Origin: an uncultured bacterium
GTDB taxonomy: Bacteria > Oederibacteriota > JAAXVQ01 > JAUVAV01
Reading direction: 5' to 3'
DNA: 64,000 nucleotides
Assembly: GCA_965371665.1 (NCBI GenBank)
Contig: CBDUZI010000002.1
Coordinates: forward strand, 4,013-68,012
Below, one piece after another: positions 6,001-60,530 of the stretch (position 1 is its first letter; each line of letters starts with the position of its first letter). A model generated the notes under the pieces. The model was not told the DNA's origin, searched no databases, and was given only the letters and a program-made list of their open reading frames with translations. Both the position numbers and the translations under genes were made by a program.

Positions 6001-6256
6001 CTGCCTGGGGACGCTCTTTTTCAATAATGCGTTCCATAACTTCCGGAGTAATGGGTTCAATATAGGTGCGATCCGCCATTTCCGGGTCAGTCATAATTGT
6101 AGCCGGATTGGAATTGACCAGAACAATTTCATAGCCTTCCGCCTTCAGCGCCTTACAGGCCTGGGTCCCGGAATAATCAAATTCACAGGCCTGGCCGATC
6201 ACGATCGGACCGGACCCGATAATTAATATTTTTTTAATATCCGTGCGCTTAGGCAT
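3026..6256 (-). CDS. carB: carbamoyl-phosphate synthase large subunit
   Basis: 1076 aa. N-term [59 protein letters not shown] is a classic CarB ATP-grasp duplication. Its stop TAA overlaps the gltB ATG by 1 nt (TAATG). Confidence 0.97.
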
Positions 6257-6309
6257 CAGAAAATTCCTTCACTATTTTTAAAACAGATTTAAAACCAGTC
6301 TCCGGGAAC

Positions 6310-6462
6310 TTGTCGGACTTTAGTCATTCTCCCCCTTTTGTAAAGGGGGCAGGGGGGATTTAATCAATAAAACACCCGCTTTTATATGCAAAATCCCCCT
6401 TAATCCCCCTTTTTCAAAGGGGGAATCTCAAAAAAAATGTCTTTGCCGTTAAGTCCGACAGG
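6310..6462. repeat. MITE-like element family C (CCCCCTTTT..AAAGGGGG hairpins, TIR TGTCGGACTT/AAGTCCGACA)
   Basis: Near-identical copies at 26405-26566, and inverted at 60355-60530. Bounded by the inverted repeat cttgtcggactttagtc...aagtccgacagg. Confidence 0.8.
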
Positions 6463-6481
6463 CTCCCAGATCGTGAATATA

Positions 6482-7588
6482 TTACCCGTGTTTTTTATGC
6501 TTCTCCATCATACTGGTAAAACGATCAAATAATCCGGCGGCATCATGGGGCCCGGGCGAGGCCTCGGGATGATACTGCACTGAAAAAACCGGCGCTTCCT
6601 TATGGCGCAGGCCTTCCACAGTATTATCGCTCATGTTCAGATGAGTAATCTCAATTTCCTGGGGCAGGCTTTCCGCCTCCACGCAGAATCCATGATTTTG
6701 AGAGGTAATACCCACCTGCCCGGTAGTCAGGTCCTTGACCGGATGATTTATTCCGCGATGGCCGAATTTCAGCTTAACCGTGCGGCCGCCCAAAGCCAAA
6801 CCTATAATCTGATGACCCAGACAGATACCGAATATCGGGATTTTCCCTATGAGTTTCCGTAATGTCTCCACAACATATGAAACCGGCGCCGGGTCACCCG
6901 GCCCATTAGAAACCATAATACCGTCAGGATGTCCGGACAATATTTCCCCGGCTGCGGTATGCGCCGGAACGACTCTCACGCTGCAATTGCGCAAGGTTAA
7001 TTCCCGGAAGATATTGCTTTTAGCGCCGCAGTCAATCACGGTTACCTTGAAAACCGTCGGACGGGCCGGCTGCTTCGGATCATTAAAATCGTAAGCTTGG
7101 GCACAGGTTACTTTTTTAACCAAATCCCGGCCTGCCATGTGCGGCGCGGCCTGGGCCTTTCTTTTTAAAGACTCAATAGACTCATCATTGGTAGAAAGCA
7201 CCCCGTTCATACTACCGGCTTCCCGGATATGCCGGGTCAAGGCCCGGGTATCCAGGCCTTCGATTCCGATAATCCCCTGCTTTTTCAACCATGCTTCCAA
7301 AGAACCCTGCGAGCGAAAATTTGAAGGCCAACGGCAAAGTTCCCGGACTATAAAACCAGCCACCTGGATGCGATCCGACTCCATATCCTCGTCATTGACG
7401 CCATAGTTACCGATCAAAGGATAGGTCATATTGACGATCTGTCCGCAATAAGACGGGTCGGTCAATAATTCCTGATAACCGGACATACCGGTATTGAATA
7501 CTACCTCAGCCGCTGCCTCGCCTTCCGCACCAAAAGCCCGGCCGCTGAACACTCTGCCATCTGCAAGTACTAATAAGGCTTTCACCAT
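6482..7588 (-). CDS. carA: carbamoyl-phosphate synthase small subunit (glutamine amidotransferase)
   Basis: Track ORF is 6482..7645. The CarA alignment begins at internal M20 (MVKALLVLADGRVF...), which has a GGAG RBS. The upstream 57 nt overlap a MITE terminal repeat (GTCAT/ATGAC). GATase motifs GICLGHQ and HPE are present. Confidence 0.9.
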   Translation of the reverse strand: MVKALLVLADGRVFSGRAFGAEGEAAAEVVFNTGMSGYQELLTDPSYCGQIVNMTYPLIGNYGVNDEDMESDRIQVAGFIVRELCRWPSNFRSQGSLEAWLKKQGIIGIEGLDTRALTRHIREAGSMNGVLSTNDESIESLKRKAQAAPHMAGRDLVKKVTCAQAYDFNDPKQPARPTVFKVTVIDCGAKSNIFRELTLRNCSVRVVPAHTAAGEILSGHPDGIMVSNGPGDPAPVSYVVETLRKLIGKIPIFGICLGHQIIGLALGGRTVKLKFGHRGINHPVKDLTTGQVGITSQNHGFCVEAESLPQEIEITHLNMSDNTVEGLRHKEAPVFSVQYHPEASPGPHDAAGLFDRFTSMMEKHKKHG

Positions 7589-7639
7589 CTGCTCCGTTTT
7601 AGATAGTATCGGTTGCGGAAAGACTGGTTCTGAAAAGGT

Positions 7640-7790
7640 TGTCATACCCGAAAGATCGTATCCCTGGACTAAACCATCCAGGACAGGCGGGTATCCCGTG
7701 CCTTTTAGGCCTCAGAAAATCAAAGCCGCTGGATTCCCGCTAAAGGCATGCGGGAATGACAACTTAAAAAATATCCTTTCCGCAACAGAC
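7640..7790. repeat. MITE-like element family B (GTCAT(A/T)CC...GGAATGAC with TTCCGCAACAGA tail)
   Basis: Terminal inverted GTCATACCCG...CGGGAATGAC with internal GGATTCC motifs. Related copies at 21718-21860, 27880-28016, 39800-39910, 42792-42925 and 7966-8055. Confidence 0.8.
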
Positions 7791-7883
7791 ACAAGATAGT
7801 TTTTTCCACAAAATTTTTAATAATATAACATATAAAATCTTAAAATCAAGAGAATTACTGTTCCAATCTCATGCCGCTCCATG

Positions 7884-8087
7884 CTAGTGTAGTGTAACAG
7901 TAACGGCTTTACAATGATTGACTTTGTTGTATCTCCAGCGTTTTTTAATATTTACTTTTTTTGGCGTCATTCCGGCATGATTGTAGCCGGAATCCAGGAA
8001 TTTGTTCTTTAAAAAGTTTTTTTCTGGACCCCGGCTACAATCACGCCGGGGTGACGTCTGTAAAGATATTACTGTTACACTACACTA
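7884..8087. repeat. perfect 20-bp inverted repeat (CTAGTGTAGTGTAACAGTAA / TTACTGTTACACTACACTAG) enclosing a family-B MITE (7966-8055)
   Basis: Read directly: 7884-7903 and 8068-8087 are exact reverse complements. The interior contains gtcattccggcatgattgtagccggaatcc...ccccggctacaatcacgccggggtgacg. Confidence 0.8.
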
Positions 8088-8117
8088 GGATATCCGGCAG
8101 GAGAGGAGGCCGCGGCC

Positions 8118-9605
8118 TTGCTGATTAAAACCGATCCGGCTGTCATAACCGGGTATTTGGAAGATGCCTCAGGTTTCACCCAGGGATATGGCGAACGCCT
8201 GGTAATTCCAGAGACCGAATCCGAGGTTGCTGAATATTTAAAGTCGGCCTCCCGAAAAAAAGAAAGCATCACCATAGTGGGAGGCCGTACCGGAGTAACC
8301 GCGGGATGCCTTGCCCAGGGAGGCACCCTGCTTTCCCTGGAACGCCTGGATACTCTCAACAATATTGAACTCACTGGAGAAGGCGGCTGGGTAACGCTTG
8401 GCCCGGCGGTCCGGCTGGAAACCCTGATATCCGCGGCTAGCCAGGCCGGCCTGCTCTACGGCCCGGATCCCACGGAGAAAACCGGCACGCTGGGCGGTAA
8501 CGCGGCGACTAATGCCAGCGGCGGACGGAGTTTTAAATACGGCGCCACCCGCAAGCATGTGCTGGCTTTAACCGCCGTGCTTTCCACGGGTGAAATCCTG
8601 CGTCTGGAACGCGGCCAATCCCGGGCTTTCCAAGACCTCCTGAAATTTCCGCTATCCTCCGGCCGAACGCTGGAATGCCAACGCCCTTTGCTTCCCTCCC
8701 GGGAAGTGACAAAAAATGCGGCCGGATACTTCTCTGCGCCGGATATGGACCCGATTGATCTGTTAATCGGCATGGACGGCACTCTGGCAGTAATTACCTC
8801 CCTGAAACTTAAATTGATAACCGCGCCGGCAGGCAGTTTCACGCTAGCCGTCTTTTTTCCGGATATGCCGAGCGCGGTTGATTGCGCCGCGATTATTCGC
8901 CGCCTGGCCCTAGATTCCGCCTTCCGGTCCGACCTTGCCCCGGCCTCGCTGGAATTTTTGGATCAGCAGGCTCTGGATTTACTCCGGCCGGAATTCTCCA
9001 ATATCCCTGATATCAGCCGGGCCGTATTATTGATGGAACAGGAGTATTCGCTCGGCAAGCAGGATGAGGCACTTTCACAATGGTCCCAATTCCTGGATCA
9101 AAGAGGCGTGCCGGAAAACATGATCTGGTATGCTGAAACCGAACCGGATGTCCGACGTTTACAGGAATTTCGCCATGCTCTGCCTGAAGCCGTGAACCGT
9201 CTGGTAAAACAAAGCAAGTTCCCCAAAGTGGGAACCGATATGGCAGTGCCGGAGAAAGCTTTTCCCGAAATGCTTAATATTTATTGCCGCGGCCTGGAGC
9301 GTCTGGGACTGCAATCTTTAATTTTCGGGCATATGGGAGAATGCCATTTGCATGTTAATATTCTGCCCCGCCAGGCCTCGGAATTCCAGGCTGCCAAGGA
9401 TCTCTATTTGCAGTTCGCCCGCGAAGCCGTGGCCCGCGGCGGCACGGTAAGCGCTGAGCACGGCATCGGTAAAATCAAGCACGCCTTTATGGAAATCATG
9501 GTAGGAGAGCCGGGATTGCGGGAAATGGCGCGGGTCAAAAGAATCTTCGACCCGGCCGGCATTCTAAACCGCGGAAACATTTTCCCGGAAAAATACTTGG
9601 AATAA
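8118..9605 (+). CDS. FAD-linked oxidase (GlcD / D-lactate dehydrogenase family)
   Basis: 495 aa, TTG start preceded by GGAGAGGAGG. FAD_binding_4-type region ITIVGGRTGVTAGCLAQGGTLLSLERLD. Length and C-terminal domain fit the glycolate oxidase/D-LDH family. Confidence 0.8.
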   Translation: MLIKTDPAVITGYLEDASGFTQGYGERLVIPETESEVAEYLKSASRKKESITIVGGRTGVTAGCLAQGGTLLSLERLDTLNNIELTGEGGWVTLGPAVRLETLISAASQAGLLYGPDPTEKTGTLGGNAATNASGGRSFKYGATRKHVLALTAVLSTGEILRLERGQSRAFQDLLKFPLSSGRTLECQRPLLPSREVTKNAAGYFSAPDMDPIDLLIGMDGTLAVITSLKLKLITAPAGSFTLAVFFPDMPSAVDCAAIIRRLALDSAFRSDLAPASLEFLDQQALDLLRPEFSNIPDISRAVLLMEQEYSLGKQDEALSQWSQFLDQRGVPENMIWYAETEPDVRRLQEFRHALPEAVNRLVKQSKFPKVGTDMAVPEKAFPEMLNIYCRGLERLGLQSLIFGHMGECHLHVNILPRQASEFQAAKDLYLQFAREAVARGGTVSAEHGIGKIKHAFMEIMVGEPGLREMARVKRIFDPAGILNRGNIFPEKYLE

Positions 9606-9629
9606 ACCCGGAAGACTTAGGAATACTAT

Positions 9630-10184
9630 ATGTGTCCTGATCAGGTGAAAAAACAAATCTTTGAAAACTATCCGGCCGGGATGGTGCTGGCGGCCAATTT
9701 GCTGTCCGCAATCATTTATAGCTTAGGTGCTGCGATCATATCGCAAATCAGTTTGTGGGCTATATTGTTATATCTGGCTTTTGGTTTGTTCCTGGAATTC
9801 AAGTTAATGGCCACCGGCTGTGTGGGTTGTCACTACTTTGGCAGGCTGTGCTTTTCCGGAAAAGGTGTTGTCAGTTCCTGGTTTTTCAAACCCGGGGACC
9901 CGAACAAATTCACCGCAAGAGAAATCAGCTGGCTGACTTTGCTGCCGGACATGCTGGTGGTATTCATTCCGGCTGCTATTGGCATTTTCTTCATGCTCCG
10001 GGAATTTAAGTGGAGCATGTTAATATTGGTGGTTGGGTTACTGATCGCGGCTTTTCCCGGACAAGGATTCATCCGGGGTGCTTTGGCCTGCTGCCACTGC
10101 CAACAGCGCAGGCTGGGCTGCCCGGCGGAAAAATTGTTTCAAAAATCGCAGGGGCAAACACATAACCCCTGTAAGGGAAGCTAA
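9630..10184 (+). CDS. hypothetical membrane protein with Cys-rich motifs
   Basis: 184 aa with several hydrophobic helices and CVGCHYFGRLC / CCHCQQRRLGC motifs. The 3' end overlaps a duplicated promoter/leader motif (10128-10200), so the C-terminus is uncertain. Confidence 0.45.
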   Translation: MCPDQVKKQIFENYPAGMVLAANLLSAIIYSLGAAIISQISLWAILLYLAFGLFLEFKLMATGCVGCHYFGRLCFSGKGVVSSWFFKPGDPNKFTAREISWLTLLPDMLVVFIPAAIGIFFMLREFKWSMLILVVGLLIAAFPGQGFIRGALACCHCQQRRLGCPAEKLFQKSQGQTHNPCKGS

Positions 10185-10200
10185 CTGTAACCAGAGGGAG
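10128..10200 (+). promoter_or_regulatory. second copy of the pncA promoter/leader motif (TTGTTT..N..ACATAACCCCTGTAAGGGAAGC..AGAGGGAG)
   Basis: About 70 nt align with 12552-12628 (TTGACT...ACATAAACCCTGTTAAGGGAAGCAAACCATAATCAAAGGAG). This copy is followed by a MITE rather than a gene. Confidence 0.5.
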
Positions 10201-10240
10201 TGTCACCAAAAGCCGTTTTTCAGAGAATTCCCCCGTTATT

Positions 10241-10358
10241 GTCATTCCGAGCGAAGCGAGGAATCTCCCGGAGCCCTGATAATTCAGGCGTTTTCTTGGA
10301 GATTCCTCGCTCCGCTCGGAATGACAAATCTAAGAAAACATGCTTCCGCAACAGATAC
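10241..10358. repeat. MITE family A (GTCATTCCGAGCGAAGCGAGGAATCTC ... GAGATTCCTCGCTCCGCTCGGAATGAC + TTCCGCAACAGATACTA tail)
   Basis: Long internal inverted repeat. Paralogs at 20790-20925, 29153-29296 (with intact TIR TCTGTTGCGGAAA/TTTCCGCAACAGA) and 52186-52272. Confidence 0.85.
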
Positions 10359-26353: not shown

Positions 26354-26404
26354 GAAATTCCTCCCTTAATCGGCCCAAGACATGGTTAGTTTTTGTTTTG
26401 CTGG

Positions 26405-26566
26405 AAGTCTGTCGAACTTTAGTCATCCCCCCCCTTTTGTAAAGGGGGCAGGGGGGATTTAATCAATAAAACGCCCGCTTTCATATACAAATCCCCCTCA
26501 ATCCCCCTTTTCCAAAGGGGGAAGCAGGCAAAACCGACTAAATGCTCAAGCTCCTAGACTAATCCC
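26405..26566. repeat. MITE family C copy
   Basis: Near-identical to 6310-6462. Right end accgactaaatgctcaagctcctag. Confidence 0.8.
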
Positions 26567-27850
26567 CAACCTGCGGTAAATCCCGTCAATATGCCGGGTA
26601 TGATATTTAAGGTCAAAACACTCCTTAATATCTTCCGCGGAAAATAAAACCTTCAGCTTAGCATCCTCACTTACCAGCTTTTTGAAATCCGTACGCTGCT
26701 CCCAGGCCCGCATGGCCAATTCCTGGACCTTCCGATAAGCCTGATCGCGGGACATCCCCTTTTTTACCAGAGTTAGCAAGACCTGCTGGGAATGGACTAA
26801 CCCGTAGGTCATATCCAGGTTACGTTTCATTTTTTCCGGGTAAACTACCAGGTTTTGGATCACTTGAACCGTCAGACTCAGCTGATACTCCACCGTGGCC
26901 GTAGCGTCCGGTAGAATTATACGCTCTACCGAGGAATGGGAAATATCTCTTTCATGCCACAAGGCCATGTTTTCCAGGGCCGCAGCAGCATAGCCCCGTA
27001 CCAGGCGCGCCAGGCCGCTAATTCTTTCGCAAAGTATCGGATTGCGTTTGTGAGGCATGGCCGATGAACCCTTTTGCCCCTTGGCAAAAAACTCTTCCAC
27101 TTCACGGACCTCGGTCCGGTGGAGGTGGCGGATCTCAACCGAGATATTTTCCAGAGTGCCCGCTATCTGGGCTAAGGCGCAAAGAAATTCCGCATGACGA
27201 TCCCGGCTGACGATTTGCGTAGCCGGCACTTCCGGAATCAGCTTTAACCCCCGGCAAACCCGGGTCTCTATACGGGGGTCCTGATTGGCATAGGTCCCGA
27301 CGGCGCCCGAAAGCTTGCCGACTTCCACGACGCTCCGCGCCCGGCTAAAGCGTTCCTGCTGACGGCGGAGTTCCATCAGGAAAACCGCCATTTTCAATCC
27401 CAGGGTAATAGGTTCAGCATGCACGCCGTGAGATCGTCCTGCCATAATGGTCTGGCGATGCCGTTTTGTCTGCCGCAGCAGGGCCTGATCAAGTTTTTTA
27501 AGCTGGGCTTGAATCAGATCCGAGGCTTCCCGCAAGCGCAGGGATTGGGCCGTGTCTACTACATCGGTAGAAGTCAAACCGAAATGAAGATAACGTCCCT
27601 CCGGGCCGATGGATTCAGCCGTAGAAGAAACAAAGGCAATTATATCATGATTGGTTTCCCGCTCTATTTCAGCGGCCCGGCCGGGATTCACGCGGACCCG
27701 GCTCTTGATTTTCTGATAAGCTGATTTAGGTATAATCCCCAGGGCGGCTTGCGCTTCGGCTACCGCCACTTCGACTCGCAGCCAGGTTTCCAGCTTATGC
27801 TTTTCCGACCAGATATATTGCATGGGCTTAGATGTATAGCGTTCAATCAT
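26546..27850 (-). CDS. purB: adenylosuccinate lyase
   Basis: 434 aa. MIERYTSKPMQYIWSEKHKLETWLRVEVAV is the PurB N-terminus. Fumarate lyase signature SSAMPHKRNP. Confidence 0.95.
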   Translation of the reverse strand: MIERYTSKPMQYIWSEKHKLETWLRVEVAVAEAQAALGIIPKSAYQKIKSRVRVNPGRAAEIERETNHDIIAFVSSTAESIGPEGRYLHFGLTSTDVVDTAQSLRLREASDLIQAQLKKLDQALLRQTKRHRQTIMAGRSHGVHAEPITLGLKMAVFLMELRRQQERFSRARSVVEVGKLSGAVGTYANQDPRIETRVCRGLKLIPEVPATQIVSRDRHAEFLCALAQIAGTLENISVEIRHLHRTEVREVEEFFAKGQKGSSAMPHKRNPILCERISGLARLVRGYAAAALENMALWHERDISHSSVERIILPDATATVEYQLSLTVQVIQNLVVYPEKMKRNLDMTYGLVHSQQVLLTLVKKGMSRDQAYRKVQELAMRAWEQRTDFKKLVSEDAKLKVLFSAEDIKECFDLKYHTRHIDGIYRRLGISLGA

Positions 27851-29109: not shown

Positions 29110-29152
29110 GCTTTATAAAATCTCCCTGTTGTGAATCTCAGATTAACTGGTT

Positions 29153-29296
29153 TCTGTTGCGGAAATGCGGTTTTAGTCTTTTGTCATTCCGAGGGAGCGC
29201 AGCGACCAAGGAATCTCCTTGAGAACTAGGGGTGTTAGTGATTCCTCGCTAACGCTTGGAATGACAAAGTGTGGTCTTTCCGCAACAGATACTATA
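29153..29296. repeat. MITE family A copy with intact terminal inverted repeats
   Basis: TCTGTTGCGGAAA ... gtcattccgagggagcgcagcgaccaaggaatctcc ... ggaatgac ... TTTCCGCAACAGATA. Confidence 0.85.
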
Positions 29297-29301
29297 TAAC
29301 A

Positions 29302-29332
29302 TAAAAAACCGTGGATAACATCCACAAATTTA
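29302..29332 (-). terminator. putative rho-independent terminator downstream of mcrC
   Basis: Minus-strand reading TTGTGGATGTTATCCACGGTTTTTT: a 6-bp stem followed by a T-tract. Confidence 0.35.
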
Positions 29333-29409
29333 AACTCTTTGACAGACGGGCAGTGGTATCGTTGCAGTTTTCATTAATTAGAGAATTTTAGTCAATTTAT
29401 TGTGGGAAC

Positions 29410-30606
29410 CTACAGAGGTACTCCATCGGTCCTGGGGGAAGGTACTGTGAAAATCTCAGCCAAGCAACTGCCCGCACTGGATTCATCGGAAAGCCTCACG
29501 ACTTTAATTAATTGCCTCCGAATCTCACTGGCTGTAGCCCCGAGATCAACGGTCGCAAACCGTATTTCATGCCCTTGAATCACCACAGACTCATCCATCA
29601 TCGCGTGTATCGATGGGTGCAAAAGAAGTCCCGCTGCATGAGCCGCAAGCGGATCGCCTTTACCTTCCTGAGATCGCAAGTAGGCATATATTTGATAAAC
29701 ATACCCGCTGCGTAATGATTCTTCTCTGTACCATCCCCGCGTAACGATCGAAGTAAACTTAGTGTCAATGACAATTCGCCGACCAGTACGCTGATGGTCA
29801 AGAACAACATCGGTACGCATTGACGGCAAAATTTTATCGATCCCAGATGTCTTATGTTCTATCAGCCAGCCGATCGCCTTCCCTGCATCGATACACCATC
29901 CAAAGTCCGATAGAACAACATCGTAAAAACCAGCAACAGCTTTTTCGTAAAGGCGTCTAACCCATGTAATTTCTCTGTCTGGCAGAGCAAGAAGTTTGGT
30001 GCCGGTTGTTTCTGTTGGAAGTGCCAAGTCAAAAGCAAGCTGCGCCGCTGCCACCATTTGTTGGTCATCGGCATCATGACGCCCAAAACGGTCAGCAGAC
30101 ACTTCAGCGCGGATGGGTTTTTCTCCTGTGACGCCCATCTGCTTTAAGCTACCGGCAAGAGCTCGGCATCGGTGTGCAAGGTCTAAACGTCCAACTATTT
30201 TGGCGATAACATCAAGCGCTGCTCGAACGAAGCGATTGCGTGATGTATTAACTGTGAGATCTTCAAATTGGCAAGCGACCATCCCTCGCGCAAGAAGCTG
30301 ATGACGCTCTGTTTTTAGAAAATCTATACGGCCACGGACCCGGCTAAGCACATTCCTTTTAGATTGGTATCCGAAACTCAAGTTGCGCTTCAGACGACGT
30401 TCGACTAATTGCACAAGAATCTCTGCTACTAAATCTGGAATGTCGTCGGGATTTTCCTCTACAGCGATTTTTTTTCGCCCAAGTTGTCGAAAGAGATCCG
30501 AAGCATAGAGCATCAAAAGCCATAGGTTGCGAACAGGTATCCGGCCGACATGACCACTCTCTAGAGGTGTTTCCAAGCTTATCGCGGATGCCTCTATAGT
30601 AGTCAC
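29410..30606 (-). CDS. mcrC: McrC-like PD-(D/E)xK endonuclease subunit of a McrBC-type (Type IV) restriction system
   Basis: 398 aa. Follows mcrB with a 2-nt gap. Nuclease core ...VVLD...RIVIDTKFTSI...YVYQIYAYL (D..(D/E)xK). Lower local GC. Confidence 0.8.
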   Translation of the reverse strand: MTTIEASAISLETPLESGHVGRIPVRNLWLLMLYASDLFRQLGRKKIAVEENPDDIPDLVAEILVQLVERRLKRNLSFGYQSKRNVLSRVRGRIDFLKTERHQLLARGMVACQFEDLTVNTSRNRFVRAALDVIAKIVGRLDLAHRCRALAGSLKQMGVTGEKPIRAEVSADRFGRHDADDQQMVAAAQLAFDLALPTETTGTKLLALPDREITWVRRLYEKAVAGFYDVVLSDFGWCIDAGKAIGWLIEHKTSGIDKILPSMRTDVVLDHQRTGRRIVIDTKFTSIVTRGWYREESLRSGYVYQIYAYLRSQEGKGDPLAAHAAGLLLHPSIHAMMDESVVIQGHEIRFATVDLGATASEIRRQLIKVVRLSDESSAGSCLAEIFTVPSPRTDGVPL

Positions 30607-30608
30607 TA

Positions 30609-33041
30609 TCAGAATCCTTCTGTTAACCGTTGTTGCGCTTTCTGAGCCTTGTCGCGAGCATCAAACCAATATTCATCGAGAAGTGGACCAATTTCAGTTT
30701 CAACAACTTGCCTAAACCATTCCCGCGCATCACTGATAGGTATCCTGAAAGGTGGTGTCACATAGCTGTGACCAATACGAAACTGACTGCCAAGACTCGT
30801 ATCTGCGGCGATCTCTTCGTTTAGCGACAGAATTCGCTTTTCAATTTCCGAAAGAATCTCCGAATCGATGCCACATTGCACATGGACCCAGTCATACCAT
30901 ATCTTTCCGAGTTTGGGCTCCAAGTTAACGAAAGCGAAGCGCCGCCTTAATGCCAGGTCAACAAGAGCAAGAGAACGGTCTGCGATGTTCATCGTGCCGA
31001 TGACATACAAATTGTCGGGGATAAAAACCCTCTCCCCTTCTGTTTGTCGATAGCAGAGCTCCAGCGCCTCCGCAGGTGTTCTTTTGTCTGCCTCGAGCAG
31101 CGTCAACATCTCACCGAATATCTGAGCGGGATTTCCTCGGTTAATCTCCTCAATAACAATGACGTGCCTAATCGTTGGTTCTTTGGATGCAGCCTTTACC
31201 ATTTCCATAAATGAACCATCGACCAGAGATAATTTCCCGTCTCCGGAAGGCCTCCACCCGCGCACAAAATCCTCATACGACAAATTTGGGTGAAACTGCA
31301 CAGCACGCACCTTGCTGTCGTTTCGCTCCCCCATCAGGGCAAAAGCTAAGCGTTTTGAAAGCCAGGTTTTACCGGTGCCCGGTGGTCCCTGGAGTATCAG
31401 GTTCTTTTTCGTCCTGAGACGTTCAAGAAGTCTTTCTAATTGTGAACGCTCTATAAAGCAGCCATCTTTCAAGATATCCTCTATTGAATAAGGTTCGATA
31501 GGAACTGAAATAATTTCTTCTGTTTCAAGATCATCATTTAAATTCTGGTCGGAGAATTCAAATTCCAGCCACTTGTACTTTCCCCTGGCGAGAAATCCAA
31601 TTTTTCCCTCGTCGCGCAGAACTTGAATCTGCTTATTAACTGAATATTCTATAGTATTGTTACTTGGGAATTCGTTTTTTAATTTCTGGAGATACTCTTC
31701 CTGAAACTCTTTTCCAGAAAATTCTGCTGACTGCTTTTTACGGCAGAGTTCGCGAATAAATGAATAAACCAGATTTCTCCAATTGCTGTTCTGTATCCTT
31801 TCTATATCCTCCGTATCTTGAAAACGCCATGCTTCCAGTGATAGCTCTGGGAAGGAATGAACCGGATAAGCCTCTTCCTGGAAACGCGCTTCTATTGTGT
31901 TAGTAACAGTGAGATAGTCATTTGCATTGCAACGGCTTTTGGGTCCATTAAGACCAATTTTAATTCCCAATTTTTTGTTGATATAGTGTTGGGACTGACC
32001 ATCAAGTGTTAGGTAATTCCAAGGACGAATCCAATAGAGTCCCATCGTGAGATTCCAGCCAACCCCCCACCTTCCTGTCGCGTTGTCATAGGCTTTTATA
32101 AATGCTGACCGGACGTTGGGATCTTCTGATTCAGCAGATTGTATCGCTTCCGCAAATATCTCCCAAAGCGCATCTATGTCGCCTGGCTGACGCTTATTCT
32201 CAAAGCCGAAAAACCAGGACCGCTGGTTGTTAAGAATAGGTATCCCTTCAAAGGACTCCGGCACCGGTTCATCTACACCCAGTAATTTCGCTAACTCTGC
32301 GGCAATTGTTTTCCGGTTGGCATCTGTAATGCCACGGGTGAAGATTCCCATTGTAGTAAATGGGCAGATGTCCTTCAATGGACCGGTTGAGCCGTCCGCA
32401 AATTGGTCCTGCAAATTCGAAAGCCCATCCACCCGTGCGGCTATGGCATGGATTCCAGCAACCAACTCGCCTCTCTTTTCACGGAAACCAACCAGTTTAT
32501 CCGCAACGGCCTCATAGAAACGTGTCCAATTGAATTGTCGCTTGTCAACTGCCCCATTACCGAATCGTCCCCTCCAATATGGCGCATTTCTAAACCGGTT
32601 CATATCCTGGGGTTTATCCTCAAAAGTAAAACTGATCAATGCGTCAGTCGTCCAATCCCCAGGCAAAACCCTCCAGATGGTACTCCTGGACGTATAGAAA
32701 TACCATTCGCGTGGTGTTTCAAGTCCGGTCCAATCAACCAGTACTTTGTGGCCATCGCCAGGATTTCCGGTTACCTTTCCAATGGCCTTAAGTGCCATAA
32801 CGGAAACTGTTTGCCCTCGGTTATCAAACGGCAAATCATGCTTGCGTGTATAGGAAGACTTGATTGCTATACGGTCACCTGGTTGGATCGACCTCACAGC
32901 ATCGAGATATCTGTCCTGATACCCATTTTCCCAGATTCCTTCCGCAAGAAATCTGGGCATTTGGTCATCAGTCCCACCGTAAGCGGCTCCAACAAACCAA
33001 CACACTCGAGCACCAGCTCCTTCTGGTTTTGCATTCATCAT
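30609..33041 (-). CDS. mcrB: McrB-like AAA+ GTPase with about 520-aa N-terminal extension
   Basis: 810 aa. Walker A LILQGPPGTGKTW. McrB signature YVIGTMNIADRSLALVDLALRRRFAFV in the C-terminal third. The N-terminal roughly 520 aa have no domain recognisable by eye. GGAGGA RBS. Confidence 0.85.
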   Translation of the reverse strand: MMNAKPEGAGARVCWFVGAAYGGTDDQMPRFLAEGIWENGYQDRYLDAVRSIQPGDRIAIKSSYTRKHDLPFDNRGQTVSVMALKAIGKVTGNPGDGHKVLVDWTGLETPREWYFYTSRSTIWRVLPGDWTTDALISFTFEDKPQDMNRFRNAPYWRGRFGNGAVDKRQFNWTRFYEAVADKLVGFREKRGELVAGIHAIAARVDGLSNLQDQFADGSTGPLKDICPFTTMGIFTRGITDANRKTIAAELAKLLGVDEPVPESFEGIPILNNQRSWFFGFENKRQPGDIDALWEIFAEAIQSAESEDPNVRSAFIKAYDNATGRWGVGWNLTMGLYWIRPWNYLTLDGQSQHYINKKLGIKIGLNGPKSRCNANDYLTVTNTIEARFQEEAYPVHSFPELSLEAWRFQDTEDIERIQNSNWRNLVYSFIRELCRKKQSAEFSGKEFQEEYLQKLKNEFPSNNTIEYSVNKQIQVLRDEGKIGFLARGKYKWLEFEFSDQNLNDDLETEEIISVPIEPYSIEDILKDGCFIERSQLERLLERLRTKKNLILQGPPGTGKTWLSKRLAFALMGERNDSKVRAVQFHPNLSYEDFVRGWRPSGDGKLSLVDGSFMEMVKAASKEPTIRHVIVIEEINRGNPAQIFGEMLTLLEADKRTPAEALELCYRQTEGERVFIPDNLYVIGTMNIADRSLALVDLALRRRFAFVNLEPKLGKIWYDWVHVQCGIDSEILSEIEKRILSLNEEIAADTSLGSQFRIGHSYVTPPFRIPISDAREWFRQVVETEIGPLLDEYWFDARDKAQKAQQRLTEGF

Positions 33042-33075
33042 TCATCCTCCCGGCGTTTTTTGAGACCTGACCTAT

Positions 33076-34617
33076 TCAATGCTTCTTACTTTGCTTTTTT
33101 ATGTACTCAGCGCCTTTCTTAGTAAGACGGTATTTTTGCAGACGGCTTTGTGGGCTGTCCGGGATGGTCCTTTCTATAAATCCCGCCTTTAGCGCGGGAA
33201 CCAGGTACAGTTTACGGAAATTTTCTTCGCTTTTAAGACCTAGGGCATCTTGAAACTGTTTGCGTTTCATCTCTCCCTTGCATATTTTAAGGAGTCGTCC
33301 GACTTCACCTGTGACTTCACCTGTGACTTCACCTGTGACTTCGGGGGTAGCTTGGGGGGTGACTTGCGGGGCTGTTCCTCCCACAGCCTCAAAAGCGCGC
33401 CCGGATTTCCGGCGAATCGTTATCACAAATCCGTCTGTTAGCCGGAACTCCGGTTCCTTGAGTCCTGCTTCGCGGCAGCGTTCAACCATATCGCTGATGC
33501 CGGTTCCCATGCGCTCAATATACTTTGTCAGATATAAAGGCTCGGCAATCAACGGATTGACAGGCACTGATCCATGCGGCTGGCGCAGCTTTTCCAATGT
33601 GAGCGGAGGCGGAAGAGTGCCGGGATTCCACACTTCCAGCCGGTCGGAAAAAAGCATGACCTGCACACTGCCATTGCTGGTATAGTCACGATGCGCCACG
33701 GCATTGACAATTGCTTCGGAAATCACTTCCGGGGGAATTTCATACGCCACCGGCGCCTGCGGTCCGCGAGCGCGCGTACCCACGGCTAAATCAATTTTTG
33801 AAAGAACAAAATTAACCGACTGGTTCACCAAGTCAAATAATGTACCCTTAAAGGTTTGATAGAAAGGAATGGGTTTTGAAACGCTTATGCCGTGAAAATG
33901 GGCGCATTTTACTTCAGACGAAATTAGAAAACGCTGCGGATTTTTCCCGAATAGAAGCATGGCCGCGTTGGTCGGGAGATCGTTTTTAAGCAAATTCAAA
34001 TGCGCCAGCACATCCCGCATTTTGGTGTCGTCCGTCAAGGGTAATCCGCGCGAGTGACGGGCAAGTTGAAGAAACCAGCTAATTTTCTCTTCAGATAGGT
34101 CTTCCAGTTTCGCATCACGGCACAACGCGGCGTCAAACGGCACGTCGCGAAGCAACTCATGCGCTGCTAAATAATCCACCAGCGCCGCGTAAACTCCTGC
34201 CATGAGCTCTGAAAATGTTGAAAACCTCCGGCGGATAAGCCGTGCGCCGGCGTGTTTCACGAGTGCGCGCATTTTCGGATGACGTTGGCTGTCATCCAGA
34301 CCTTTGACAAATATCAAACGATATTTTCCGCGCCTGGTTGCTTCATCAAACTCCTGATGCGTGGCCGAAAAACCATTCGCATCTTCAAGCCCGTATTGAT
34401 TCCCGAAAATGCCAATATAAACCTCACATCGCCCGATTTCGTTCATGTACAATGCCACCGCTGATTGATCCGCAGCAGCTTTGTCTTCAAACACAAACGG
34501 CTCAAAAAACCTCCGCAACATTGGATCAGCGCACAGATACTCGCGCAGGGCTGCGCGCGCCGCTTTAAACTCTTTTTGAACACTGCTAATGAATATTTTA
34601 TATTTCATTCGAGTCAT
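33076..34617 (-). CDS. DUF4062 (TIR/SLOG-like) - RecG-C-terminal-like (HATPase_c_4) - winged-HTH fusion protein
   Basis: 513 aa. N-term YKIFISSVQKEFKAARAALREYL...CEVYIGIFGNQYG matches the DUF4062 pattern (FISS...R.YG). Middle AAMLLFGKNPQRF...IVNAVAHRDYTSNGSVQVMLFSDRLEVWNPG matches the 'RecG C-terminal/HATPase_c_4' type of putative regulators. C-terminal wHTH ...SRLQKYRLTKKGAEYIKK. Stop lies 34 nt upstream of mcrB on the same strand. Confidence 0.7.
   Translation of the reverse strand: MTRMKYKIFISSVQKEFKAARAALREYLCADPMLRRFFEPFVFEDKAAADQSAVALYMNEIGRCEVYIGIFGNQYGLEDANGFSATHQEFDEATRRGKYRLIFVKGLDDSQRHPKMRALVKHAGARLIRRRFSTFSELMAGVYAALVDYLAAHELLRDVPFDAALCRDAKLEDLSEEKISWFLQLARHSRGLPLTDDTKMRDVLAHLNLLKNDLPTNAAMLLFGKNPQRFLISSEVKCAHFHGISVSKPIPFYQTFKGTLFDLVNQSVNFVLSKIDLAVGTRARGPQAPVAYEIPPEVISEAIVNAVAHRDYTSNGSVQVMLFSDRLEVWNPGTLPPPLTLEKLRQPHGSVPVNPLIAEPLYLTKYIERMGTGISDMVERCREAGLKEPEFRLTDGFVITIRRKSGRAFEAVGGTAPQVTPQATPEVTGEVTGEVTGEVGRLLKICKGEMKRKQFQDALGLKSEENFRKLYLVPALKAGFIERTIPDSPQSRLQKYRLTKKGAEYIKKQSKKH
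33301..33342. repeat. in-frame 12-bp tandem repeat (GACTTCACCTGT x3.5) encoding (EVTG)n linker
   Basis: Read directly. Translates to TPEVTGEVTGEVTGEV within the gene at 33076..34617. Confidence 0.9.
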
Positions 34618-34689
34618 TCCCTCTTAAACAAAGCCTTACCGCGAAAGTCTACATATCGGGAGAGATTTCTTCTCTTCATACCCCCAACT

Positions 34690-35210
34690 CCTCAAAATTC
34701 CTTTTAATGGTCGCTGCCAGTTGCACGGCCTCACTGACGTTTCTCGATAGCCTCAATATGCTCCAACTGCGCCATGATTATTCCTACCCTCTAATAGTAT
34801 TAGGGGAAGATCAGACCGTCCCCTATCCCCATGGATTCAATCCATGCATAATTGTCAATGGGCGGGCACACCCTTCGGCTTCGCTCAGGACAAGGAGGCC
34901 CGCGCCCCTGCAAATTCTTTCATGCCTCCGCAGGGGCCGGCTTCTTTATCCTGCCTGTCCTGAGCATAGCGAAGGGAGCCTGCCGAAGGGCATGCCGGCC
35001 CAGGGTTTCAATTCATGCGTGATCATTAATGAGCGGGCCCCTGCCTGCTCTTCATTGTATCTTGCCCGGACCGGACCGGTCAAGCTCGTCGGCCCACCAC
35101 ATAATTAAAGCGTCTTCCTGATTATCGTTATAGTAAGCCCGCCTGATCGCATCAGGTTAAAGCCGTGCTTCTCGTAAAGCCGGATGCACGGCTAAATTGA
35201 TAATATGCCT
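34690..35210. repeat. segmental duplicate of the rimI-proximal region (R) plus a rimI 3' fragment
   Basis: 34690-35100 aligns with 38225-38550 (shared hairpin-rich sequence: cttcggcttcgctcaggacaaggaggcc, gtcctgcctgtcctgagcatagcgaagggag, ccctgcaaattctttcatgc). 35100-35210 is a copy of the rimI 3' coding end (38590-38700 joined to 38800-38830, with an internal deletion). The junction lies directly at the mltA stop. Confidence 0.8.
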
Positions 35211-35212
35211 GA

Positions 35213-36090
35213 TCACTCCCCCTGCTTCTTTTTCACCAGCAGATAGAGCTTACCGTTATTTTTGAGATGTCCGGCGACATATTCATTTTGTCTGCCGGAT
35301 CCACAAAATAAATCTATCCGGTGCGGCCCGCGTATCGCTCCTCCCGTATCCTGGAACAATACAAAACGGCTGATTTGTTCTTCCCGGATTTGATTTCCCT
35401 GTTCATCAAACACTGGAACATTTACTTCAATATACCCCAATCCCCCAGATTATCCACCCAGCACAGTTCCCGGCTTTTTCCGGTCAGGGTATTTCCAAAA
35501 TCAATTTCCGACCGCGTATAATAAGGCACGACCTTATTTTCATCAGTCAAACGGCCCCTTATTTTATTGGGTTTTATGTCGGAATCTGTAATGACGGGGA
35601 AATCCTTCAGTCTCAAGCTTACCAGATCATCCGGTAATTTATACAGCGGATAACAATAGCGGTTGCTCCTTTCAAAGGATCCCCGCAAAGTCGGCATGCA
35701 ATATGCCGTAAAAAACACTTGGGCGTCGTAGGGAATATAACTATTGAAATTTCTATGGAGATAATCGTAAAATTGGGTGTTTAGTCCGTTCTGCTGGAGC
35801 ATGGCTTTGATTTCGATTAATGCGGATTTCATCTCCGGAACCGTGAAGGTGTCCTGGCCCACATGGATGAGATCTGTCTCGGCTTTAGTCGCATAATACT
35901 GCAGGCTCATGTCCAGGGCGTGATAAAGAGCTGGTAAATCGTCCGGATCGTCGATAAATTTGATATTCGTAATTGGTGTTGGTCGAAATGCATTTTGAGG
36001 TGTCCAATCCGCAGGCTTAAACCAGGTGGCGCAGCTGTTTAGTATCAATAAAAAAAGTGGAAATAAGAGAAGTTTTGCTAAATTCTTCAT
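35213..36090 (-). pseudogene. mltA: membrane-bound lytic murein transglycosylase A, frameshifted at a C5/G5 homopolymer (about 35444-35448)
   Basis: Two overlapping ORFs (35422..36090 lipoprotein N-terminal MltA domain; 35213..35440 3D domain with QDTGGAIRG). Adding one G in the GGGGG run restores ...WVDNLGGLGYIEVNVPV.... Either an authentic pseudogene or a homopolymer sequencing error. Confidence 0.7.
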
Positions 36091-36689
36091 TCCGCCTCCA
36101 TCTCAGGTCTGAACTGCTGCTTTCCGCCTATGCTGCTTTACCGGCCCTGCTCCGGCAGCTTAAAAAATCCGGGATTTTTTTTGAGCCTGAAAAGGCGCAG
36201 TTGCCTTATATTCATCTGAACACTATTTTTATCCCTGAAATGATTCCTCCCCACGAACTCCGCCGCCGCACTCAAGCCGAGATGGCGCTTAAAAATAAAA
36301 CCCTTCAGAAAATTGAAGAGCTTAACCCGGAAGCAAAAATAACCGCCGCTAATATTCTTGAGCAAACCTTACAAGACCTGCGTTTAAAACACCGGATTCA
36401 GGATGCCAAAATCAATCAAGCCCTTTTAAATCGAATTCCTTCCGGCGCTATAGTTAATCTTGTCCGCCCGAACTGGTTTCCGGAATCCCTGGGCACCCCT
36501 ATCCTGGTATCGCATATGGGCTTTGCCATATGGAAAAACAACCGTCTCTATTTTCGCCATGCCACTTCATCCGGCGCTAAGTGCGTAACTGATGTTTTGC
36601 TTACCGAATATCTTCAAAAATATTTACTAAGTCCCACCCTGAAAGGTATCAATCTCCTGAAAATCCAATCTCCGCTTGAGACTGAGTGA
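36057..36689 (+). CDS. hypothetical protein (possible DUF1460-like), start uncertain
   Basis: The GTG ORF start overlaps the divergent mltA N-terminus. A more likely start is the internal ATG near 36249 (MIPPHEL...). C-terminal region NWFPESLGTPILVSHMGFAIWKNNRLYFRHATS. Confidence 0.35.
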   Translation: MEIREVLLNSSFRLHLRSELLLSAYAALPALLRQLKKSGIFFEPEKAQLPYIHLNTIFIPEMIPPHELRRRTQAEMALKNKTLQKIEELNPEAKITAANILEQTLQDLRLKHRIQDAKINQALLNRIPSGAIVNLVRPNWFPESLGTPILVSHMGFAIWKNNRLYFRHATSSGAKCVTDVLLTEYLQKYLLSPTLKGINLLKIQSPLETE

Positions 36690-36829
36690 ATGTATTAGGA
36701 AGACGGTCTTTGCCTGCCACCCATTTTTGTTTTTCCGATTAGAACCGGATAACCTCCCCCAGGATATTTATCCCACCTGCCATCCTTATCCGATTATCTG
36801 AAGAACGTCCCCGGTTCACTCTGCTCTAT

Positions 36830-37225
36830 TCAATGCTTCTTACTTTGCTTTTTTATGTACTCAGCGCCTTTCTTAGTAAGACGGTATTTTTGCAAACGGC
36901 TGTTGGGCTTATCCGCGATAGTTCGTTCAACAAGTTTTTCAGATAAAATATCCTGAACCAATCTTTTCAGAGACCCTGTAACCTGTTTTCTGCCAACTTT
37001 CACAGATTTTTCAGACATGGAAAGTGGCTTATTTGTTAATGCCATTACACTTGACTCAAACCCTGACTGGGCTCTTGACTGGACCCTGGTGGCTTGCGCA
37101 ATCTCTTTTTGTGACCAGGCCGCAGCAAAAGCACCAGTTTCATCACTTGATGTTGAGGTCTCTAACTCGCTATAGAAATTCAGCAAATCGTTATTCTTCA
37201 TTCTCCAGTAATTTTGCGATTTCAT
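36830..37225 (-). CDS. small wHTH protein; probable 3' remnant of a paralog of the 33076..34617 gene
   Basis: C-terminal 27 aa (…SRLQKYRLTKKGAEYIKKQSKKH) and about 95 nt of DNA (36826-36920) are near-identical to the 3' end of gene 33076..34617 (33072-33165). The N-terminal half has no homology. Overlaps the YhcG stop by 35 nt. Confidence 0.4.
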   Translation of the reverse strand: MKSQNYWRMKNNDLLNFYSELETSTSSDETGAFAAAWSQKEIAQATRVQSRAQSGFESSVMALTNKPLSMSEKSVKVGRKQVTGSLKRLVQDILSEKLVERTIADKPNSRLQKYRLTKKGAEYIKKQSKKH

Positions 37226-38219
37226 CCGGCGACGGCAACTGGCCTTTCAGCTCTTTGGGCAGTCGTTTGACAATGCGATAGGTTGCCACCCCAATCGGCT
37301 TGCGCGCATCACGCAGGGCATACTCAACAACAGTACGTTTTTTCTCCTTGCACAGGATAATTCCGATGGCGGGTTTTTCACCCTTCTCACGCACCTGTTG
37401 GTCCAACGCTGCCAGATAAAACTGCATCTTGCCAACAAATTCGGGCTTAAATTCACCGATCTTCAGTTCAATCGCAACGAGACATTTCATACGGCGGTGG
37501 TACAACAACAAATCAATGAAATACTCCTTATCTTCCACCTCCAGCCGGAATTGGCTGCCGAGAAAGGCAAACAGACCTCCCATAGTCCGCAGAAAATCCT
37601 CGATCCGCGCAATAAGGGCGTGCTCCAGTTCCCGTTCGGAATGGTCATCGCCCAGTTCAAGAAAACCAAAGGTATATTCATCCTTCACGGCCAATTTAGC
37701 CTGAGATCGCTGTCTTGGCGTCAATGCGCAGTCGAAATTGGTCTGACCCAACAGGGTTTTTTCATAGCTTTGGTTTTCGATCTGATGGACAAGGACATTT
37801 TTGGACCAGCCGTATTTCTTCGCCATGCGAATATAGAACTCGCGTTCCAGAGGATCGTTGCAACGCTGTAAAACAATTATATTATGGGTCCAACCGATTT
37901 GTGCAACCAATGGTTGCACTTTCGTGATATCCCGGTAAGCATGATAGAATTCCCGCATGTAGTAAACATTCCTGCGGGAAAAGCCGCTTATGCCAGGAAA
38001 TTCACGTTGTAAATCAATTGCCAATTGTTTTACGATTGCATCACCGTGCTTACTATCCACTTGCCGCTCGGTAATCAGCCTGCCGATATCCCAATACAGG
38101 CCAATCAGTTCCTTATTTACCGCCTTAAGGGCCGTATATTGAGCGACACGAATACGCTCTTTGACCTCAAGCAGCAGGTCGATGTAAGACCTGGATAACT
38201 TGCTTTGAACCTTACTCAT
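37191..38219 (-). CDS. YhcG-family (DUF1016 + PD-(D/E)xK) putative nuclease
   Basis: 342 aa. N-term SKVQSKLSRSYIDLLLEVKERIRVAQYTALKAVNKELIGLYWDIGRLI is typical of DUF1016. C-terminal core FIDLLLYHRRMKCLVAIELKIGEF (D...ELK). Confidence 0.8.
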   Translation of the reverse strand: MSKVQSKLSRSYIDLLLEVKERIRVAQYTALKAVNKELIGLYWDIGRLITERQVDSKHGDAIVKQLAIDLQREFPGISGFSRRNVYYMREFYHAYRDITKVQPLVAQIGWTHNIIVLQRCNDPLEREFYIRMAKKYGWSKNVLVHQIENQSYEKTLLGQTNFDCALTPRQRSQAKLAVKDEYTFGFLELGDDHSERELEHALIARIEDFLRTMGGLFAFLGSQFRLEVEDKEYFIDLLLYHRRMKCLVAIELKIGEFKPEFVGKMQFYLAALDQQVREKGEKPAIGIILCKEKKRTVVEYALRDARKPIGVATYRIVKRLPKELKGQLPSPDEIAKLLENEE

Positions 38220-38553
38220 ATCCCCAACTCCTCAAATTTCCTTTTGATGGCCGCGGCCAGTTGCACGTAAGAATAATCATCCACCTGCTATCCTTATCCG
38301 AAGAACGTCCCCTGTCCCTGTAATCGTCAAGGGGCGGACTCGCCCTTCGACTTCGCTCAGAACAAGGAGGCCCACCCCTACAAATTCTTTCATGCAGCCC
38401 AGGGTTTCAATTCATGCGTATTCGTCAACGGTCAGGCCCACTTGTCCTGCCTGTCCTGAGCATAGCCGAAGGGAGCATGTCGAAGGGCGTGCCCGCCCAG
38501 GAATTTCGCAGCCCACTGATGGGCAACCACTGGGGGTTGCCCCTACAAATTCT

Positions 38554-39045
38554 TTACGGCGTCATGCCCGGACCGAACTGGTCAAGCTCGTCGGCCCACA
38601 TAATTAAAGCATCTTCCTTATTGTCGTTGTAGTAAGCCCGCCGGATCGCGATCAGCTTGAAACCGTGCTTCTCGTAAAGCCGGATGGCCGGCCGGTTGCT
38701 GGCCCGCACTTCCAAAGTGGCCCGCCGTGCGCCCAGTCGCATGGCCCATTTCATGGTGGCCAGCAATAGCCGTTCAGCTATTTGCCGCCGCCGGAAAGCC
38801 GGATGCACGGCTAAATTGGTAATATGGGCCTCATCCTGTACCAGCCAAAAACCCATGTATCCGATTACATGATTTTGCTGCCGCGCTATCAGGTAATGGC
38901 AGAGTTCCTGGTTTTTAACCTCTTCTTCGAACATGGCACGCGTCCAGGGCGAAGAGAAAGAGCTTTCCTCCACCCAGAGAATCTCATCCACATCTTCGGG
39001 ACGGACGGGCGTGATTTCAATGCCCGGCTCTTGCAATCTGGTCAT
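38554..39045 (-). CDS. rimI: ribosomal-protein-alanine N-acetyltransferase (GNAT)
   Basis: 163 aa. GNAT motif HITNLAVHPAFRRRQIAERLL. Overlaps tsaB by 4 nt. Confidence 0.85.
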   Translation of the reverse strand: MTRLQEPGIEITPVRPEDVDEILWVEESSFSSPWTRAMFEEEVKNQELCHYLIARQQNHVIGYMGFWLVQDEAHITNLAVHPAFRRRQIAERLLLATMKWAMRLGARRATLEVRASNRPAIRLYEKHGFKLIAIRRAYYNDNKEDALIMWADELDQFGPGMTP

Positions 39046-60354: not shown

Positions 60355-60530
60355 GGGCCTGAGCATTTAGTCGGTTTTTTTTAATTTCTGAGCAATAGAA
60401 CAATAGAAAATAGACCGCAATTGAGTTTTTTATTGCTCTATTGTTCTATTGTCAATTGCTCTGGAGTTTGAGCACTCTTCCCCCTTTGAAAAAGGGGGAG
60501 AATGACTAAAGTCCGACAGACTCCTAGGGG
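60355..60530. repeat. MITE family C copy (inverted) with internal perfect palindrome CAATAGAACAATAG / CTATTGTTCTATTG
   Basis: Ends ggggcctgagcatttagtcggtttt and gaatgactaaagtccgacagactcctagg. Confidence 0.8.

Follow-up and report, generated by a model that had tools for sequence, protein, structure and literature searches.

The locus described here brings together domains known from several defence families. DUF4062 has been characterised as a TIR-like NADase that acts as an abortive-infection effector (bioRxiv 10.64898/2026.05.01.722283, 2026.06.25.731849, 2026.09.04.749371); in Swarozyc (KpSwz), whose catalytic residue is E97, the phage portal activates the protein via a winged helix-turn-helix (HTH) auxiliary domain, the same NIR domain occurs also in Avs2, Vulcan and Vesta, and Evangelion (Eva01) is a further DUF4062 defence family (same three preprints). 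PF13749 is a GHKL ATPase, and in the Schlafen-prokaryotic Argonaute (SLFN-pAgo) system RzAgo its binding of ATP drives oligomerisation of the fused Schlafen nuclease; the “Schlatpase” module of SLFN and GHKL, to which an HTH is often added at the C-terminus, is widespread and has been found in Type I restriction-modification (R-M) operons (bioRxiv 10.64898/2026.05.29.728809). Among McrBC enzymes, proteins of the N-terminal domain-winged helix-NTPase (NTD-wH-NTPase) type paired with McrC have been noted, though not characterised, as a class (PMC11037411), and a census finds the E. coli-type McrBC branch often beside Type I R-M (PMC11090510). In a 64,000-nt stretch of contig CBDUZI010000002.1 from an uncultured Oederibacteriota bacterium (hereafter the window, meaning the whole stretch analysed), a gene for a DUF4062(NIR)-GHKL ATPase-winged helix protein (“gene A”) lies ahead of genes for an McrB-like GTPase and McrC. 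We propose, with a probability of about 0.7, that two defence modules, each self-sufficient and mobile on its own, lie side by side in this cluster as a mosaic, and not as a co-evolved system.

The proposal is drawn from the Type I context of gene A homologues, the rarity of McrBC near them, the lack of gene A at related McrBC loci and the position of a module junction in the spacer. Eighty genome loci of gene A homologues were taken with 10-kb flanks, their open reading frames (ORFs) were called and the neighbours clustered; the recurrent neighbours were HsdM, HsdS, HsdR and a YgjP-like peptidase. Type I hsdM/S/R genes were found within four ORFs of the gene A homologue in 38 of the 80 loci, on the same strand in 36 and on both sides in 15, and the distance to the adjoining hsd gene had a median of 1 nt, with twelve 4-nt overlaps. 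In nearly half of the sampled genomes, then, the family is built into a Type I restriction operon. An McrB-type GTPase was present within 10 kb in only two of the loci (L026 and L074), each a genome with a gene A homologue and McrBC in one same-strand cluster; both McrBC pairs are genuine by Pfam, but they belong to McrB subfamilies other than that of the window and do not adjoin gene A. Their divergent McrCs were missed by tblastn with the McrC of the window and found by Pfam.

The McrBC-centred sample included 68 metagenome loci; 49 distinct loci remained once duplicates had been dropped and an upstream flank of 1.6 kb or more was required. No gene A homologue was found upstream of McrBC of the window family at any of the 49 distinct loci (0/49), nor in the 68 metagenome loci as a whole, and the five distinct places that hold the closest McrB relatives (72-82% identity) likewise have none. 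The genes upstream of these McrBC relatives vary, among them Mrr-like genes, HsdR, BrxL and large helicases, and such neighbours agree with the census placing the E. coli-type branch near Type I R-M (PMC11090510).

Sequence comparison also separates the two parts of the cluster. The nearest McrBC loci are 84-85% identical to the window in nucleotide sequence over 29475-33049 only, and the edge of this similarity, at 33038-33051, is no more than 10 nt from the McrB ATG (33041). The repeat D1, which takes in the 3' end of gene A, stops at 33067, 26 nt before the McrB start codon; its two copies share 87% identity over 113 nt, about 75 nt of which are identical. Given that McrBC similarity and D1 both end there, the junction between gene A and McrBC is placed inside the 34-nt spacer. 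At the other end of gene A, similarity to a 96%-identical gene A fragment from another metagenome (L158) is lost at 34685, within the duplicated segment R1. Taken together, the boundaries of McrBC similarity, D1, R1 and the L158 match indicate that gene A with a short leader is one cassette and McrBC another.

Table 1. Features of the gene A-McrBC cluster and its surroundings, in window coordinates.
Feature	Position	Strand	Basis
Gene A (DUF4062(NIR)-GHKL ATPase-winged helix protein, 513 aa)	33076-34617	minus	ORF list, Pfam, AlphaFold2 (AF2)/Foldseek
DUF4062/NIR TIR-like domain of gene A, residues 7-135, motif S84-A-T86-H87-Q-E89-F90	34213-34599	minus	Pfam PF13271; KpSwz profile match
Codons for gene A residues 87-89	34351-34359	minus	site aligned with KpSwz catalytic Glu varies, Glu89 fixed
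GHKL-type ATPase domain of gene A, residues ~297-400, N-box E301xxxN305 and G371-T-G373	33418-33729	minus	Pfam PF13749, family alignment
C-terminal Fic-like_C winged helix of gene A, residues 438-499	33121-33306	minus	Pfam PF21247; PDB 4rgl E 5e-18
Gene A-McrB spacer, 34 nt, with module junction and McrB ribosome-binding site GGAGGA	33042-33075	minus	direct reading, repeat D1, nucleotide comparison
McrB-like GTPase, 810 aa	30609-33041	minus	ORF list, Pfam, NCBIfam, structure matches
DpnI_C-type winged helix insert of McrB, residues 438-490	31572-31730	minus	Pfam; DpnI 4esj E 3e-4
McrC nuclease subunit, 398 aa	29410-30606	minus	NCBIfam equivalog, Pfam McrBC, PDB 6hz4_M
Terminator-like hairpin and T-run, 3' of McrC	29309-29327	minus	consensus match only
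Best promoter-like site upstream of gene A, TTGACC-18-TACAAT, 10/12 positions	35054-35083	minus	consensus match only
Repeat D1, copy at 3' end of gene A	33067-33179	minus	includes stop codon and 9 further bases
Repeat D1, second copy, 3' end of a 131-aa winged-helix ORF	36821-36933	minus	ORF 36830-37225, Fic-like_C match
R1, diverged duplicate of GNAT 3' end, intergenic region and YhcG start, just upstream of gene A	34676-35207	minus	repeat comparison
R2, other copy, GNAT-YhcG junction region	38216-38826		repeat comparison
YhcG/DUF1016 PD-(D/E)xK nuclease gene, same island	37191-38219	minus	Pfam
Strain-variable island, ~9.2 kb	29136-38322		synteny break vs L157, GC dip

The three genes follow one another on the minus strand with gaps of 34 nt and 2 nt, in a region (29-38 kb) with a GC content of 0.43-0.51 against 0.52-0.56 in the flanks. 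The McrB ATG is preceded by a GGAGGA ribosome-binding site, and terminator-like and promoter-like sites were looked for in the spacer and none found; with the hairpin after McrC, these features make one transcription unit of gene A, McrB and McrC plausible. Promoter-like sites around the locus are no more numerous than the shuffled expectation. Scans of the window for tRNA genes and Rfam families gave no candidate integration-site mark, megablast of the locus against E. coli genomes gave no match, and neither gene A nor the 100%-identical McrB cluster P0121 was on record when looked up by exact sequence. In these respects the sequence-only reading of the locus stands: its three same-strand genes with those gaps in a lower-GC block, its domain calls (DUF4062, HATPase_c_4, winged HTH, AAA_5 and McrC, all found by hidden Markov model (HMM) searches), its view of the genes as defence genes in a plausible single transcription unit, and its recognition of a Type IV McrBC pair were all borne out. 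It had gone on to see in the upstream protein a dedicated sensor or regulator of McrBC and in the trio a distinct McrBC architecture, and had named the lack of this gene at homologous McrBC loci beforehand as one of the findings that would refute it. Since homologous McrBC loci are without the upstream gene A, and McrBC lies near so few gene A loci (2/80, against 36-38/80 for Type I R-M), this single-system reading is not supported, nor is a distinct architecture, with gene A not kept beside homologous McrBC and a junction in the spacer. The trio is best taken as a defence-island juxtaposition and should not be catalogued as an McrBC system or as a new architecture.

Gene A itself matches three Pfam families: DUF4062 (PF13271) at residues 7-93 (E 7e-19; 68 bits, cut-off 24.7), HATPase_c_4 (PF13749) at residues 317-398 (E 2e-21) and the Fic-like_C winged helix (PF21247) at residues 438-499 (E 1e-23). 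Across the aligned family no variation is seen at the N-box residues E301 and N305 or at the G-box residues G371, T372 and G373. No SLFN_AlbA_2 match was found in Pfam at E <= 0.1, the N-terminus being DUF4062. In the AF2 model, with a predicted local distance difference test (pLDDT) score of 74, the predicted N-terminal fold is matched by Foldseek to CMP N-glycosidase, nucleoside deoxyribosyltransferases (NDT) and TIR domains, and the predicted remainder to DIP2311 (3lmm) and a Fic C-terminal domain (4rgl); 3lmm is the best match of the middle and C-terminal part for Foldseek and HMM searches alike. The gene A family profile matches the KpSwz structure sequence 10wc_A (E 7e-6), and PADLOC aligns the middle of the protein with SIR2-effector pAgo partners; PADLOC holds no dedicated model for gene A or for the McrC of the window, and NCBIfam none for gene A.

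Homologues of gene A form more than 6,000 clusters, and the best 120 all carry the same three Pfam domains; these are 58-68% identical and come from many phyla, indicating horizontal spread. The DUF4062-RecG-C-winged HTH fusion, taken for unusual when only the sequence was read, thus defines a family of thousands of proteins, and its DUF4062 domain, cast there as part of a regulator, is by homology an effector (NADase). What emerges is a family of very many members, strongly conserved and spread horizontally, in which a DUF4062/NIR domain, a putative NADase, is combined with a GHKL ATPase as its putative switch. Judged by its sequence, gene A is best described as a Schlatpase-type protein in which a NIR domain has taken the place of the nuclease effector, because the GHKL motifs are kept, AlbA_2 is absent, AlbA_2-bearing paralogues (SLFN_AlbA_2, HATPase_c_4 and Fic-like_C) occur in the same loci as gene A homologues, and PADLOC reports the SIR2-effector match.

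Some further features of gene A and its relatives are recorded here. A (TGEV)n linker joins the GHKL domain to the winged helix and is encoded by about four tandem copies of the 12-nt unit GACTTCACCTGT (33301-33348; repeat D7); the linker is probably flexible, as pLDDT falls below 50 there in the model, and, being encoded by a tandem repeat, is possibly variable in length. One archaeal (Methanosarcinales) locus, L002, has at 9302-10330 a 342-aa DUF4062 and Fic-like_C protein without the GHKL domain beside a full-length gene A homologue; the pair sits inside an hsd operon, and the short form is Swarozyc-like with the same winged helix. The Bacteroidetes locus L026 (2629-11584) encodes on one strand an EVE-McrB, McrC, an ADP-ribosylglycohydrolase, two small ORFs and the gene A homologue, so that an ADP-ribose-processing enzyme lies near a putative NADase.

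The McrBC pair appears from its sequence to be a canonical E. coli-branch GTPase-nuclease pair. Pfam finds AAA_5 at residues 547-702 of the McrB-like protein (E 5e-28) and DpnI_C at residues 438-490 (E 3e-10), and McrBC in McrC (E 3e-19); the NCBIfam McrC equivalog scores 419 bits against a cut-off of 338, and the GTPase half of McrB scores 246 bits, the C-terminal 290 residues matching E. coli McrB. The solved E. coli structures are matched at E 2e-84 for the McrB AAA+ domain and E 2e-15 for McrC (PDB 6hz4_M), and Foldseek of the McrB model gives 40-42% identity to E. coli McrB over the AAA+ part only. All McrB motifs are intact (GPPGTGKT at 552, Walker A; IEEINR at 630, Walker B; MNIADR at 684, NxxD), as is the PD-(D/E)xK-type motif of McrC (TD...IVIDTK, with DTK at residue 281). 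The domain order of McrB is DUF8425, DpnI-like winged helix, AAA+ GTPase and McrB_lid, where DUF8425 and McrB_lid are named by precomputed Pfam hits of McrB relatives; DUF8425 takes up the first ~430 residues, where the structure model (pLDDT 59) has no interpretable fold. The window McrB is of the already noted NTD-wH-NTPase type (PMC11037411).

This McrB family is very abundant, with a ~805-aa subfamily that has the DpnI_C insert and a 735-aa subfamily without it; members of the latter are 77-86% identical to the window McrB, in a best local alignment over about half of the query. Only in a variable segment at ~31503-31816, comprising the winged helix, does the gene show no similarity at the nucleotide level with its 735-aa relatives. 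This reader domain appears to behave as an exchangeable insert within a family of ~80% identity, and by analogy the DpnI-like winged helix may confer a preference for N6-methyladenine (6mA).

A working model for each module can be put together from its relatives. Module 1, gene A, would be a putative single-gene abortive-infection module, with the N-terminal DUF4062/NIR TIR-like domain as an NAD+-hydrolysing effector and the GHKL ATPase as an ATP-driven oligomerisation switch, both assigned by homology, and with the C-terminal winged helix as the presumed trigger or nucleic-acid sensor. An infection cue received by the C-terminal half would lead to GHKL-mediated assembly and so switch on the N-terminal enzyme, with NAD+ depletion and abortive infection as the presumed outcome. 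Module 2 would be a classical McrBC Type IV enzyme, in which, by analogy, McrB hexamers would read modified DNA via the N-terminal DUF8425 and the DpnI-like winged helix, and GTP hydrolysis by McrB would activate the PD-(D/E)xK nuclease of McrC. The two modules are plausibly co-transcribed here, which would give a layered defence.

Several points weigh against this account. HMMER aligns SFTEKAF of KpSwz with SATHQEF of gene A, for the single sequences and for the family profile, so that KpSwz E97 corresponds to His87: the catalytic glutamate of the S-x-T-E motif is not found at its place in gene A. In 119 close homologues the site is H in 55, Q in 32, E in 27, A in four and D in one. Since the position of KpSwz E97 is His87 in gene A and varies (H/Q/E/A) in close homologues, NADase activity is not assured; the domain might be a Glu89-based NADase or carry out another chemistry, and the mechanism set out above for gene A is inferred from homology only. 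Immediately ahead of McrB, what is left of a Fic-like_C winged helix can be seen in four McrBC relatives, and a GHKL-winged HTH gene without DUF4062 in one, which points to some recurrent adjacency of winged HTH genes and this McrBC family; co-transcription could, moreover, create functional interplay between the modules. ORF calling in the loci was crude (longest ORFs), and the counts come from samples capped at 80 gene A and 68 McrBC loci.

The states of site 87 are mixed even inside clusters at 70-75% identity, and Glu89 is present in every ungapped sequence of the gene A homologues. The E-x-E form is found in 118 of 150 representatives clustered at 50% identity; when the representative library was searched with the DUF4062 domain, most of what came back belonged to the gene A family or was fragmentary. 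The mean pairwise identity of the domain is 0.66-0.72 among H/Q carriers and 0.68 among E carriers, and F9, S11, S12, Y75, S84, T86 and E89 are invariant in the family. Being equally conserved in H/Q and E carriers, the DUF4062 domain of gene A is, on this comparison, under selection.

This conservation bears directly on the view that gene A is a DNA-binding transcription factor with a catalytically dead DUF4062 domain, controlling the downstream restriction genes. A C-terminal winged helix is indeed present, His87 stands where the canonical catalytic Glu would be, and JGI names among the gene A homologues include “predicted HTH transcriptional regulator”; the equal conservation of DUF4062 and its invariant residues speaks against a dead domain, however, the GHKL ATPase motifs are invariant, the winged HTH of Swarozyc senses a phage protein and not DNA, and the Schlatpase relatives are effectors, so that we hold this view to be very improbable. 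To an equally small degree we credit a dedicated three-gene system in which gene A senses or regulates and McrBC executes. The shared strand, the ribosome-binding site in a 34-nt gap free of terminator- and promoter-like sites, and the two other genomes with gene A and McrBC in a same-strand cluster would fit it, yet no McrBC relative has gene A (0/49), the two McrBC pairs near gene A relatives are non-adjacent and of other subfamilies, a recombination junction falls within the spacer, and McrBC of this family occurs in many contexts without gene A.

Another explanation takes the Type I association at face value. PrrC, the anticodon nuclease of EcoprrI, is embedded in a Type Ic hsd operon, and gene A relatives might likewise be guards that monitor restriction complexes, mostly Type I and here McrBC, and fire their effector once a phage anti-restriction protein disables the enzyme. 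The families are alike in that an abortive-infection-type effector gene is nested among hsd genes (15-36 of the 80 loci); in many genomes the gene A homologues are set within hsd operons, with overlaps of the translational-coupling kind, the embedding position is the same as that of prrC in the EcoprrI locus, and in the window gene A directly precedes another restriction enzyme. They differ in that gene A has an unrelated fold and effector chemistry and that the window is without hsd genes; hsd remnants of a decayed Type I locus were sought there and none was found, only YhcG. About half of the gene A loci, however, have no restriction genes within four ORFs, the hsd partners vary in position and order, and the same embedding is seen for unrelated hitch-hikers (YhcG, AAA_15/21, Schlatpase). 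We consider such a guard unlikely. A bolder form of the idea, to which we would give a similarly low rating, would make DUF4062(NIR)-GHKL-winged-helix proteins widespread “restriction guards” of hsd operons, placed here before McrBC, that sense phage interference and respond via the TIR-like domain, the E/Q/H toggling beside an invariant Glu reflecting tuned or changed chemistry.

The juxtaposition of two modules lies within a larger variable island of ~9.2 kb. Its extent is given by a related strain (L157; PurB 95% identical), whose DNA, 85-91% identical to the window, aligns up to 29135, where synteny stops, and resumes with the 55 nt just upstream of apbE, which match 38323-38377. The PurB of the window (26546-27850) shares 95% identity with one JGI metagenome contig and 70-72% with metagenome-assembled genomes of candidate division FCPU426, which puts the host bacterium in that lineage or close to it. 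A dispersed element of ~120 nt (6305-6425, 26399-26524 and 60480-60527), 88-93% identical to L157 4520-4646, could represent a small repeat or a family like miniature inverted-repeat transposable elements (MITEs).

Within the island, D1 and R1/R2 frame gene A and the pair of YhcG and a small winged-HTH gene like alternative cassettes between the same flanks, now in tandem, and a shared 3' winged-helix coding end could serve as a hook by which recombination swaps cassettes in restriction loci. The stretch between the repeat units (35422-36689) has an MltA ORF truncated to its insert domain and, overlapping it on the opposite strand, an AmiA-like ORF, both of which are probably rearrangement debris; a candidate gene at 34707-35108 on the plus strand was rejected, as it lies within the duplicated R1 and has no family match. 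YhcG is typical of Type I R-M loci and has homologues in the hsd loci L017, L033, L058 and L119. The last of these has the order HsdS-YhcG-HsdR-Mrr(HARE-HTH)-McrB-McrC (116-9326), and its YhcG is 75% identical in nucleotide sequence to that of the window. The island of the window may derive from an “immigration control” cluster of the L119 kind.

Set against the described DUF4062/NIR proteins, gene A shares the N-terminal TIR-like domain, the helical stalk, the C-terminal sensing region and the single-gene organisation, together with a defence-island location and horizontal spread. It departs from them in its auxiliary region, which consists of a GHKL ATPase and a Fic-like_C winged helix, and in the typical context of its family, the Type I hsd operon; the architecture of DUF4062, GHKL ATPase and Fic-like_C is unmentioned in the main text of the three preprints on DUF4062 (bioRxiv 10.64898/2026.05.01.722283, 2026.06.25.731849, 2026.09.04.749371). 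Compared with Swarozyc (~330 aa), which has DUF4062, a stalk and an HTH/winged auxiliary (AUX) domain only, gene A has an extra 240-residue middle region and the GHKL ATPase before the winged helix, and relative to KpSwz it has His87 at the catalytic Glu position and lacks the Q/W/E motif. With the Schlatpases (SLFN_AlbA_2 and HATPase_c_4, with or without HTH; COG2865), exemplified by DIP2311 (PDB 3lmm) and the N-terminal module of RzAgo, it has in common the middle region, the GHKL domain, the C-terminal winged helix and the occurrence in Type I R-M operons, whereas DUF4062 takes the place of the Schlafen nuclease domain. The McrBC pair resembles that of E. coli K-12 in its AAA+ GTPase with NxxD and its McrC equivalog immediately downstream, but its reader is DUF8425 with a DpnI-like winged helix and not the McrB-N domain; it is in this respect like the NTD-wH-NTPase/McrC class, whose pairs are typically clustered with Type I R-M, Mrr and BREX.

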